This document shows, piece by piece, positions 43,981-61,509 of a DNA stretch of 64,000 nucleotides. This stretch comes from Somniosus microcephalus (Eukaryota). The notes under the pieces are model-generated. The model saw only the letters and a program-made list of their open reading frames with translations. It was not told where the DNA came from and searched no databases. Position 1 is the stretch's first letter; every line of letters begins with the position of its first letter. Made by a program: the position numbers and the translations under genes. The stretch spans positions 49,538,001 through 49,602,000 of the forward strand of contig CM126222.1 in the NCBI GenBank assembly GCA_052327205.1, read 5' to 3'.

Positions 43981-46069
43981 TAATTTTACAAGTCAGAAAA
44001 TAAGTGAAAGCAATAAAGAAACCTGCAGGATAGCAGTATGAAAAGGAGAAACAGAATGATTGAAATGAAAGCAGGTGACAGAAAGAGCTCATTTTTCATT
44101 TTTATTTCCTTTTCCTGATGCTGTACCAAATCATCTTTAATGGATACTGCCTTCGTTTCAAAGCAAGGCAGTCTGTCGAGCTCACTTGATTAATTTACCA
44201 CAAATCTTTTCTCTCCCCTAACCGTAGTGCTGCAGTTTGCCAAGTCTAAACGCTACCATATGTTTTGTATTCTCAGGAGAGGCAGTAAATAGCCGTCTTT
44301 GCCTGGCCACATTCCTTGGATATATTCACAAATAATTATAGAAGGATTTAATATACTTTCAAAAGGAATAAACTGGATAGACAGTAATTAATCACTGTTT
44401 ATCAGCGGGCTCTCTATACTGGAGTTCAGTGCTATCAGTCACCGTAAATCCAGTACTGATGACAGGCAAGTCTCCCTCCATTCATCCCCAGGCTTAGTTT
44501 TATTATAGTCAAATCTGCTTCACCACAATGACAAATGGAGCAGTAACCTGTTTAAAGAGACTGTATCCCTTTTCTGCTGCCCTGCACAGTCCAATTTTCC
44601 ACCCAATATTTTACATAAATATCTCCTTGTTTTGCTTACTGAGGCCTTCTCGCAGTTAGAAATTGATTTAAAAACTCGAGTGCAGCTTTTAAACCTGCTG
44701 CAACCAGCATCCAATGATCTGCTTGTCGATTTCCAGACAGTTCCATGAATTCAGAATGAAGCAGCGAGTGATCACAACATACTGGGGGTGCTTTGCAAGC
44801 AGGACTATCAGAAAGCAGATCACTGCAGTAATGTTTAAATTACATTTAACCCTTATCCAGCAGTATAAATGTGAGACCCACTTAGCCGGAAATATGGATG
44901 AAAGAGGAAGGTAGTCTCTTTTTGAATCACTTTACTCCATTCTTGTAACAATTCCTTGTAAACGTTAACAAGAAAACCATATTAAAATCGAGTAAACTGA
45001 CTCAACAAGAGACTATTTCTTCCTTTTTAACAGACCTCAGTGGAGTGAATAAAAGCCCTTAAAATGTGATTGCTGTAAATTTAAAGCCACATTGCCCCAT
45101 ACTTGCTTAATTGTTTCAATATGATATATCAGTAGGCGCATACCTACCTGTCAAAACGTGCCATTGTGAGGAACATTCATTTTTCACAGCAAATGTCAAT
45201 TTTACAAACACTTAATTTTTGTACTCCTGTTACTGACCTCCGATTTCTATCATAGTTTGGGGTTTAAGGTTAGCCAAAGCTCGAGTGAAGAATGAAGAGC
45301 ACAACCCATGTCTTCCCAAAATGGACTTCCACTTTTAATTCTCCAGTCTTGTGAGTCACTGTATGCAACACTTTAAGATGCTTTGATGTGATTCGCAGCT
45401 ATATAAATATAAGGTTTTTTAAAAAAAAACATAATATTCAGAACAGATTATTTTCCTTAACTGCCACCCAGGCCACTGCAGCTTTAAGGTCAGTAGCTCG
45501 GGGTAAGAGTTCCTCCAGTGTGTAGCAACATTAGAAATGCATTCCTAAAGTTTACCTCTTGTCAATATTTCTTAGAAATCATAGAAACCTTCATGAACAC
45601 ACTTACAATTTTGCTAGCACTATCTACCTGAGGAAATCTTCATCAATGCATTTCTAATATTAACACAGGAATCAGAGAAATTCAACAATGCCCACCGATC
45701 TCACTTATGCCAACTGAATATTTCAAGAGATTAATATTCTAGTGCTTATGAAAAGACCATTTTTTTCTCACCGGTTTTCTCCACTCATCTCTTCTGAAGA
45801 TGTTGATTCCTTGCTGGGGTTTGGTTCCAGAGATACCCTCTGGCACTTCACCAAGCTTTGACCGATCCTGCCCTAAGTTGACGCCCACACTTGGACCCTT
45901 CCAGCAGGGGGCAAAAGTGGCCAATTTCCCCTTTTATTTTATACTTTTCTTGCCAATCTCTTTTGTATTTGCCTGCTCTCCTGCAGGCCTTGATTCCTTG
46001 CTGGGGTAAGGGTACATAGCCGCAATTTGCCCTCCAGTACCTTGCGCAATTGGACCGCATTCATATACA

Positions 46070-58552: not shown

Positions 58553-58685
58553 TGACTGGTTTTCCATACCCAGGAGCTGGAGCAGCTGTGGCCTACAGAG
58601 GAGCTCATTTACGGGGGCGAGGTCGCGCTGTTTACAACACCTTTCGCGCTGCACCCCCACCACCGCCTATCCCAACGTACGGAGC
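58553..58685 (+). CDS. RBFOX3: RBFOX3-like exon [45 protein letters not shown] (133 nt)
   Basis: ctctgtctctag| acceptor and AGC|gtaagt donor. [25 protein letters not shown] is the RBFOX3-type sequence, and EFYA joins VTGFPYP directly as in RBFOX3. Confidence 0.95.
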
Positions 58686-58959: not shown

Positions 58960-59140
58960 GTTGCTTCATCGTCGCTAGGTCAAAATCCTGGAACTCCCTC
59001 CCTAATAGCACTGTGGGAGCACCTTCACCACACGGACTGCAGCGGTTCAAGAAGGCAGCTCACCACCACCTTCTCAAGGTCAACTAGGGATGGGCAATAA
59101 ATGCTGGCCTTGCCAGCGACGCCCACACCCCATGAACAAA
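58960..59140 (+). mobile_element. Short 3' end of the second LINE family
   Basis: tcaaaatcctggaactccctccctaa...gggcaataaatgctggccttgccagcgacgccca. Confidence 0.85.
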
Positions 59141-59414
59141 TACAAATTTGTGCTCTGATGCTATGGGGATGATGCTATTTTCCTTTATGCTGTATCACCA
59201 GTGAATAATTTACAATAGATTACAGGCAAATTCTGTAAGCAGAACCTACTTGATGCTACAAAAGAACATCCTCTCTTACTCTTGTCTCTGTAAACTGTTT
59301 TATTTTGAAGCGGTTAAACGTAATGGGAAATTTGACACATCTATGGGGAAAGGTTTCTACGGTATGCTAGGTGTGGTGAAATTGTAAACCCATTTATCAA
59401 GAGTGGGCTTACAA

Positions 59415-60145
59415 TTTTGCTACACTTAATGCAAAGAAATCTTCCTTCCTCCCCACTCCAATCATTAACCTAGGTCTTGGCCCTGGAGTTAAATTCCCTG
59501 TAATTTAGTGGCGAGAGTAGCTCACTTTCCCTGTTGTTGTGGCCTTTCAGAGCTGTACAACCTTTAGAGGAGTGTTTTTCTAATTTAAAAAAAAGTATAG
59601 ACAATAAATGTTGCTACCAAAAAGAAAAGCTGGTGGGAAAAATACTTCAAATGTTGCTGTAACAAAGTGAAAGGGAGCCGCTACAACCTGGTTAATGTGA
59701 GATACAGAGGGCAAATTTGCTTTTGAAAGATTATTTGTCTTACACAGCATAGATGCATAATTGGATCGCATTTTAATTAAAGTTTTAATAGGAAAATTAT
59801 TTGTCTTCAATTTATGTTTGAAGTTCCTATTTTTCACTACAAATGTGGTTAATTATTCTCCTCCACCTTCCCCCCGCAACTGCCCTGAATTGTTCTAATT
59901 ATCGAAAAGAATTTGAAGGACTTTCCCACCAGCTATTTTTTTATTGGTAGCAACATTTATTGTCTATACTTTTTGTAATTAGGAAAACTCTCCTCTAAAG
60001 GTTGTACAGATCTGAAAGACCACCACAACAGGGAAAGTGAGCTACTCTCGCCACTAAATTAGAGAATTTAACTCCAGGGCCAAGATCTAGGTTAATGATT
60101 GGAGTGGGGAGGAAGGATGACTTCTTTGTATTAAGTGTAACAAAA
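59415..60145. repeat. Long inverted repeat, arms 59415-59652 and 59911-60145, ~260-bp spacer
   Basis: For example aatttagtggcgagagtagctcactttccctgttgt pairs with acaacagggaaagtgagctactctcgccactaaatt. Pairing continues over ~235 bp. Confidence 0.95.
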
Positions 60146-60257
60146 ATAGAAAATGTCCCTTTTCAACCTTACCCTGCAACATTTTGCAGATTGTCTAGAG
60201 CAGGGTCACACATATTAGCTTAATTTTTTTGTTCTCTCTGTTTGCTTATATTAACAG

Positions 60258-60261
60258 AAAG
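60258..60261 (+). other. Candidate 4-nt microexon AAAG (or recursive splice site)
   Basis: ttttttgttctctctgttTGCttatattaacAG|AAAG|GTGAGC: long pyrimidine tract, TGC at -15, CAG acceptor, strong donor. Confidence 0.5.
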
Positions 60262-60266
60262 GTGAG

Positions 60267-61127
60267 CATAGAAACATAGACGATAGGAGCAGGAGTAGGC
60301 CATTCGGCCCCTCGAGCCTGCTCCGCCATTTAATGAGATCATGGCTGATCATCCAAATTCAGTACCCTGTCCCTGCTTTCTCCCCATATCCCTTGATCCC
60401 TTTAGCCTTAAGAAATATATCTAACTCCTTCTTGAATATATTTAATGAATTGGCCTCAACTGCCTTCTGTGGTAGAGAATTCCACAGGTTCACCACTCTC
60501 TGGGTGAAGAAATCCCTCCTCATCTCTGTCCTAAATGGCTTACTCCTTATCCTTAGACTGTGACCCCTGGTTCTGGACTCCCCTGCCATTGGGAACATCC
60601 TTCCTGCATCTAGTCTGTTCAGTCCTGTTAGAATTTTATAAGTTTCAATGAGATCCCCTCCCATTCTTCTAAACTCCAGCGAATATAAGCCCAATCGACC
60701 CAATCTCTTCTCATACGTCATTCCTGCCATCCCAGGTATCAGTCTGGTGAATCTTTGCTGCACTCCCTCATGGCAAGAACATCCTTCCTCAGATAAGGCG
60801 ACCAAAACTGCACACAATACTCAAGGTGTGGTCTCACCAAGGCCCTGTACAACTGCAGCAAGACATCCTTGCTCCTGTACTCGAATCCTCTCGCTATGAA
60901 GGCCAACATACCATTTGCCTTCTTAACCGCCTGCTGCACCTGCATGCTTACCTTCAGCGTCCGGTGCACAAAGACACCCAGGTCTCGTTGCACTTCCCCT
61001 TCTCCCAATCTATTGCCATTCAGATAATAATCTGCCTTCCTGTTTTTGCCACCAAAGTGGATAACCTCGCATTTATCCACATTATACTGCATCTGCCATG
61101 CATCTGCCCAATCACCCAACCTGTCCA
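60267..61127 (-). mobile_element. Young CR1 (HER1-like), 5'-truncated
   Basis: ORFs 60739-61152 and 60359-60817 are nearly identical to 5464-6198. Confidence 0.95.
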
Positions 61128-61509
61128 CGAGGTGTGAAGCCAGTTTGCCCACTTTGTTTGCTTTCCAACTTTGTTGACGACATTACAAAATGGAAGAACG
61201 TGCACCTTAACGTGCCTTTTCTTCAAATGTTCCATTCGATATGTGGATGCATGATTGCAATCTTATCCTTCAAAATTGGCTTAGTCTCTTCATAACTCAG
61301 TAATCAATGAAATATTTATCCCAGTTGATTTAGATATGAATTACTTGCAAGCTGCAAAACACAATTTGGCCAGCCTTTCTCACCAGATCACCTCAGTGTG
61401 ATTGTAATCAGTAAACTTGTAATCTAGTAGCTCGAGTCCTACAGCTACACCATAAGCTCTGGCCTCCCTTGTAGCTGAGGAGCTGGGAACTTGCTTTCAC
61501 TCTGAAGAT

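Follow-up and report, generated by a model that had tools for sequence, protein, structure and literature searches.

The closest described relatives of the element discussed here are the SRRM3/4 neural microexons. These are 3–27 nt long and, according to the available sections of 10.1101/2024.09.17.613571, combine a strong 5' splice site with a pyrimidine tract and a branch point that are set back from the AG, and with the bipartite enhancer UCU_CUC[N1-50]UGC. UGC is present in 79% and 74% of two microexon classes (section 10 of that source), and cryptic microexons with a PSI under 10, with or without the UGC/UCUC motifs, form a described class. A second point of comparison is the pair of exons B40 and M43 of RBFOX1/2, both 1 mod 3 in length, that affect the C-terminal stretch of the protein (PMC7214753 and PMC5577181, available parts); skipping of B40 is known in mouse Rbfox1 and rat Rbfox2, as far as the accessible literature goes. 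RBFOX genes are also described as using exons coupled to nonsense-mediated decay (NMD), and RBFOX3 tunes Rbfox2 via the poison exons 5* and 6* (PMC13542418, available part). Under the NMD rule given in the accessible part of PMC3126832, a stop more than 50–55 nt upstream of the last junction leads to decay. Finally, a recursive splice site is defined in the available part of PMC10156609 by a pyrimidine tract and a YAG directly before GT. Here we describe a putative 4-nt exon, AAAG, that from its sequence context is a plausible cryptic or poison microexon of a shark's RBFOX3.

The RBFOX3 locus

The product of RBFOX3 is the neuron marker NeuN. The window, by which we mean the whole 64-kb stretch of DNA analysed (G000:C21:49538001-49602000, part of a 6.4-Gb genome), carries on its + strand those exons of an RBFOX gene that encode the RRM and the C-terminal region. 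The peptide of the TYGA exon (Table 1) has 100% identity to the RBFOX3 of sharks and chimaera, and the candidate AAAG sits in the intron bounded by this exon and the B40 exon, the latter lying 10.7 kb downstream of AAAG; the YGRVY exon and then the last exon are also located 3' of the window.

Four further genomic loci match the TYGA exon at 71–86%. The loci on C11 and C28, which we take to be RBFOX1-like and RBFOX2-like, respectively, carry B40 and then M43, at 1.8 kb and 0.8 kb downstream of B40. The C43 paralogue has B40 only, and at the C27 locus no downstream exon was found within the 30 kb searched. This C27 copy (C27:2148776-2148880 in G000, L004) is a fifth, diverged version of the TYGA exon that resembles the C43 paralogue and has no donor at the usual place; it is possibly a duplicated fragment or a pseudogene.

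Table 1. Features of the RBFOX3 intron around the candidate exon (window positions unless C21 is given)
Feature	Position	Strand	Remarks
RBFOX3 coding exon (TYGA exon, VTGFPYP...PTYGA)	58553..58685	+	133 nt; upstream partner of AAAG
Inverted duplication, left arm	59415..59652	+	single-copy; 90% identical to right arm
Inverted duplication, right arm	59911..60145	+	ends 112 nt before AAAG
Branch-point match TTAAT	60220..60224	+	branch A at -35; motif match, putative use
Pyrimidine tract	60224..60245	+	T-rich; holds TCTCTC and TGC, a bipartite SRRM3/4-type enhancer by the published motif definition
TCTCTC, 5' half of enhancer	60233-60238	+
TGC, 3' half of enhancer	60243-60245	+	at -15
CAG acceptor	60255..60257	+
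Candidate 4-nt exon AAAG	60258..60261	+	predicted from splice signals
GTGAG donor	60262..60266	+	+1 to +5; AAG/GTGAG context
CR1-like LINE, 3' end	60267..61127	-	5'-truncated, 861 nt; begins at donor +6; other copies 92–96% identical
TGCATG (RBFOX site), weak	61248..61253	+	121 nt past LINE; one of 25 in window
RBFOX3 B40 exon	C21:49608938-49608977		40 nt; beyond 3' end of window
RBFOX3 GGYAAY exon	C21:49616442-49616506		beyond 3' end of window

Anatomy of the AAAG site

An earlier note on this DNA had pointed to an AAAG/GTGAGC site in RBFOX3 about 1.6 kb past the TYGA exon, with an AG-free tract, a TGC at -15, a CAG acceptor and a strong donor only 4 nt further on. All these elements were located: the intron between the TYGA exon and AAAG is 1,572 nt long and, with the nearest upstream AG at 60217, the acceptor is preceded by an AG-free zone of 38 nt. 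The SRRM3/4-like anatomy proposed there was borne out and, besides the TGC, now includes a branch-point match and the TCTCTC half of the enhancer, separated from the TGC by 4 nt; TCTCTC had not been used in the earlier note and constitutes a partly independent match to the SRRM3/4 enhancer. We scored TTAAT as a branch point against yUnAy, which we take to be the relevant consensus, and the strength of the donor, the tract and the branch point was likewise judged by consensus.

The site has 4 nt between AG and GT, within the 3–27 nt range of SRRM3/4 microexons, carries UCUCUC..UGC between the branch point and the AG, and combines a strong 5' site with a set-back tract and branch point. By its anatomy, it may thus work like an SRRM3/4 microexon and is a candidate member of this class. 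AAAG resembles the SRRM3/4 neural microexons (10.1101/2024.09.17.613571, available sections) in length, donor, set-back tract, enhancer and neuronal host gene, and differs from them in that it shifts the frame, that no conserved counterpart was found and that its inclusion and SRRM dependence are predictions.

Neither the AAAG motif nor the LINE is an assembly error, since 60088-60290 is covered by a DNA contig of organism I that differs at one position only, 60118. The stretch is single-copy by read depth in organism I, and an origin of the motif from a repeat was ruled out, as 60140-60266 matches only itself genome-wide.

Flanking LINE and inverted duplication

The LINE fragment next to the donor presumably belongs to the CR1 family, a name that we assigned from its ORF2-like peptides. 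The C of the GTGAGC in the earlier note is the first base of this antisense fragment, which is flanked by a possible GAG target duplication. Creation of the donor by the LINE insertion was ruled out, because the element begins at +6 and positions +1 to +5 are host sequence. On the other side, the two arms of the inverted duplication yield a predicted pre-mRNA stem of ~240 bp (z = -41 versus 20 shuffles) that ends 75 nt before TTAAT, and the AAAG site is situated in a 121-nt island between the duplication and the LINE. Such a stem would shorten the effective upstream intron, and the duplication is a possible substrate of A-to-I editing or a possible modulator of splicing.

Organism J carries the inverted duplication too; its two samples show 7 substitutions and 1 gap in the 302 nt of 59760-60061. 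The right arm has no substitutions in 142 nt versus 7 and an indel in 160 nt of the loop (Fisher p 0.008–0.016; the test is post hoc, with the differences assigned to the pieces by inference). The TGCATG behind the LINE is ~1 kb away from AAAG now and would be ~126 nt behind it if the LINE were removed; with 25 sites, or one per 2.6 kb, the density of TGCATG in the window equals background.

Reading frames and protein evidence

The four combinations of AAAG and B40 were translated. B40 without AAAG gives the normal C-terminal end (RFTPY), and AAAG without B40 gives TYGA-K-GGYAAY with the frame kept and an Ala-Lys junction, so that the frame arithmetic of the earlier note (AAAG is 1 mod 3 and in frame on its own) proved correct. 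With neither exon the frame is shifted as well. When both exons are included, the frameshift leads to a stop within the GGYAAY exon. In the shortest model, 82 nt separate this stop from the last junction; this distance exceeds 50–55 nt, and the product is therefore of the NMD type, as expected of a poison exon. The earlier note had expected a frameshift with loss of the NLS or NMD; the translation confirms the frameshift and the NMD-type stop. The Rbfox2 exons 5* and 6* (PMC13542418) and the Bak1 microexon (PMC3126832) are alike in that, in the parts of these papers available, a small exon introduces a premature stop and triggers decay, in an RBFOX-family or neuronal context; unlike AAAG, which is only predicted, they are experimentally demonstrated and belong to another gene or position.

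The headline of the earlier note, the equivalence of AAAG to B40/M43, holds for the length modulo 3, fails for position and homology, and finds no support as regards mutual exclusion or an Ala-Lys isoform. The M43 exons lie just downstream of B40 and AAAG lies upstream of it; by this position, and by the lack of homology, AAAG was ruled out as the M43 counterpart. Short-word alignment of the AAAG island to three paralogous regions revealed no homology to their introns and no matching site, the only 4-nt match there having a weak GTAAC donor, and neither short-word alignment nor peptide patterns turned up a remnant of M43 in RBFOX3. No feature was found that makes AAAG and B40 mutually exclusive. 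AAAG thus shares with the RBFOX1/2 exons of PMC7214753 and PMC5577181 (available parts) its 1 mod 3 length and the same C-terminal stretch, and differs from M43 in its 4 nt, the lack of homology, its place upstream of B40 and the absence of any sign of exclusion.

We retrieved 376 RBFOX proteins (the best 120 of 1,856 and the best 120 of 1,569 matches, plus the listed cluster members). The exon-end motif was present in 347 of these and missing from 29; after the motif, B40 comes next in 282 proteins, the sequence stops at the exon in 23, and 42 differ. Neither Ala-Lys nor Thr-Lys follows the exon in any of the 347 proteins among the matches listed, and a search that used a protein without B40 as bait returned no Ala-Lys cluster representative among the matches listed, though such a protein should rank high. 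This is a weak test, as 90% clusters hide their members and gene models rarely contain 4-nt exons or NMD products. Of 81 cartilaginous-fish models, 80 have B40 directly after the TYGA exon, and the remaining one is without the TYGA exon. However, six pigeon RBFOX3 RefSeq models (P0118, P0329, P0330, P0332-P0334) omit B40 with no replacement and with a shifted-frame end, which, together with the skipping of B40 in mouse Rbfox1 and rat Rbfox2, counts against an assumed constant inclusion of B40.

RNA data, other species and published catalogues

The AAAG motif is identical in organism I only, which shares 0.83 of its words with the window and, being near-identical, is too close to reveal constraint. 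Organism J and RNA run X7 have no contig over 60157-60245; for organism J, contig filtering beside repeats can give such a gap, and no weight is placed on it. No RNA data set was listed as containing the stretch. One contig of RNA run X2 covers the TYGA exon and 14 letters beyond it. The raw RNA runs X23 (24% read) and X24 (31% read) gave zero reads on the RBFOX3 exon itself and are thus uninformative on AAAG, and the metagenome and prokaryote collections scanned contain no host-derived RBFOX3 DNA.

The mouse Rbfox3 3' end was placed on chr11 by its presumed coordinates. The mouse MicroExonator table has no entry at these coordinates, while a control term was found; its only AAAG microexon among 2,988 rows (PMC7821500, supplement file 2) is on chr1. 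A gene-name search of the PMC7821500 supplements was empty, the main table giving transcript ids and not names, and the supplements of PMC4317164 other than file 1 contain no RBFOX3. The available part of PMC3126832 lists, for mouse Rbfox3, exon 6 acceptors 3 nt apart, exon 8, exon 12 and alternative acceptors of exon 15; like AAAG, these events represent alternative splicing near the B40-equivalent exon, but no 4-nt exon is among them in that part of the paper. No description of a 4-nt RBFOX3 exon was found by title or abstract start, a search that did not cover the VastDB, Irimia 2014 and Torres-Mendez 2019 catalogues.

Frequency of chance matches

As a control we used 658,400 strand-bases, comprising the antisense of the RBFOX loci and both strands of 20 arbitrary 10-kb stretches. 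A loose pattern (pyrimidine fraction of at least 0.7, at least 30 nt free of AG, YAG, 1–27 nt, GTRAG) occurred there 11 times, or about 1.07 per 64-kb strand, three of the matches being near-identical copies of one repeat. A TGC was present in four loose matches, an AG-ending exon in one, and the two together in none; TCTCTC..TGC accompanied two, or one at a pyrimidine fraction of at least 0.7. On the sense strands of the RBFOX loci (258,400 bases), the AAAG site is the sole match with the bipartite motif. The full set of signals is expected by chance in a number of windows of the order of 1 in 10 to 1 in 100, with filters that were picked after the AAAG site had been seen. The rarity of the motif is suggestive and not decisive: it is uncommon, yet it may be reached by chance in a large multi-window scan.

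Discussion

The explanation that we favour, and to which we give about an even chance (the probabilities of all readings are our own judgement), is that AAAG is a cryptic neural microexon, mostly skipped, which when used joins B40, shifts the frame and sends the RBFOX3 message to NMD. SRRM3/4 would assist exon definition in neurons by binding to the UGC; inclusion would be low, in a minority of transcripts; B40 would stay included beside AAAG; and the product would be lost through the frameshift, the premature stop and the decay that these are expected to cause. No selected function is claimed for AAAG here. The set of signals that is unique in the 258,400 sense bases, versus one or two in 658,400 control bases, argues for such an exon, as do the single-copy state of the stretch, the B40 that follows the TYGA exon in 80 of the 81 cartilaginous-fish models, the stop created by AAAG plus B40 and the described class of cryptic microexons. 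Against it stand the look-alikes at ~1 per 64-kb strand, a second of which lies in this gene, the post hoc filters, the lack of Ala-Lys among the 347 proteins, of an Rbfox3 entry in the mouse table and of a matching site in the three paralogous regions, and the fact that no junction read was observed. If AAAG is spliced and regulated, SRRM3/4 and RBFOX, which are the main splicing programmes of neurons, would be linked by a 4-base exon of a kind that escapes standard aligners and gene models, and a case of lineage-specific microexon origin would be at hand; a cryptic or unused AAAG would simply illustrate the frequency with which the large introns of sharks resemble microexons.

A pure look-alike, AT-rich intron sequence matching splice signals by chance and never spliced, is somewhat unlikely in our view, although the 11 loose control matches, two of them with the bipartite motif, the position of the site in an island between a duplication and a LINE and the lack of a counterpart in paralogues, protein models and the mouse catalogue are all what it would lead one to expect. 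What speaks against it is that all the signals occur together, with distances between them that resemble those in real microexons, and that no control combined a TGC with an AG-ending exon. The same anatomy could have been kept by selection as a poison microexon through which SRRM3/4, and possibly RBFOX itself via TGCATG, tunes the RBFOX3 level by decay, an unlikely reading that is in line with the NMD-coupled exons described for RBFOX genes, with the place of TGCATG before the LINE is counted and with the unchanged arm of the hairpin in organism J. Against it stand the tolerance of 861 nt of LINE at donor +6, which moved TGCATG to ~1 kb, the background density of this motif and the absence of a counterpart from the mouse MicroExonator table. 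Improbable in our estimation is a bolder version, in which sharks gained a 4-base neuron-specific RBFOX3 switch behind a 240-bp hairpin, which kills the message with B40 and yields a tyrosine-poor Ala-Lys isoform without it; were it true, four bases would re-invent the M43 choice of RBFOX1/2 and tie SRRM3/4 activity directly to the NeuN dose.

The use of AAAG as an in-frame substitute of B40, with the Ala-Lys isoform standing in for the missing M43, was the main proposal of the earlier note and appears very doubtful. AAAG alone does keep the frame, RBFOX3 is without a detectable M43, and B40 can drop out, as in the six pigeon RBFOX3 models and, in the literature available, in mouse Rbfox1; but none of the 347 proteins among the matches listed, including those of the search with the B40-less bait, has Ala-Lys, 10.7 kb separate the two exons, nothing forces them to exclude each other, and AAAG is on the opposite side of B40 from M43. 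The strong acceptor signals and the AG/GT at 60260-60263 would also fit a recursive splice site, as the earlier note had suggested, or the acceptor site of a terminal exon formed by read-through, for which a stop is present after six residues in the LINE tail. We give this pair of readings hardly any probability: the CAG is followed by AAAG before the GT and the second AG is part of an AAG, which departs from the YAG/GT definition in the available part of PMC10156609, and the strength of the donor speaks for exon definition rather than read-through.

Further observations at the locus

At ~58960-59146 of the window lies a SINE-like repeat of high copy number that has an A-rich tail and is plentiful in RNA runs from sharks. 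Two additional C-terminal exons (RYTQES... and REWDG..., at ~C21:49631570 and ~C21:49632320, L011) are situated after the YGRVY exon and before the last one; they occur in many shark and ray RBFOX3 models and alter the C-terminus and the localisation signal. RBFOX3 contains a second loose microexon-like match at 45987-46005, of 19 nt (1 mod 3), with 68 nt free of AG, a TGC and a GTAAG donor, which is single-copy in the DNA examined. Outside the window, in the same intron as AAAG and before B40, a 12-nt in-frame microexon-like site with an AG/GTAAGT donor is found at L008 8261-8272.
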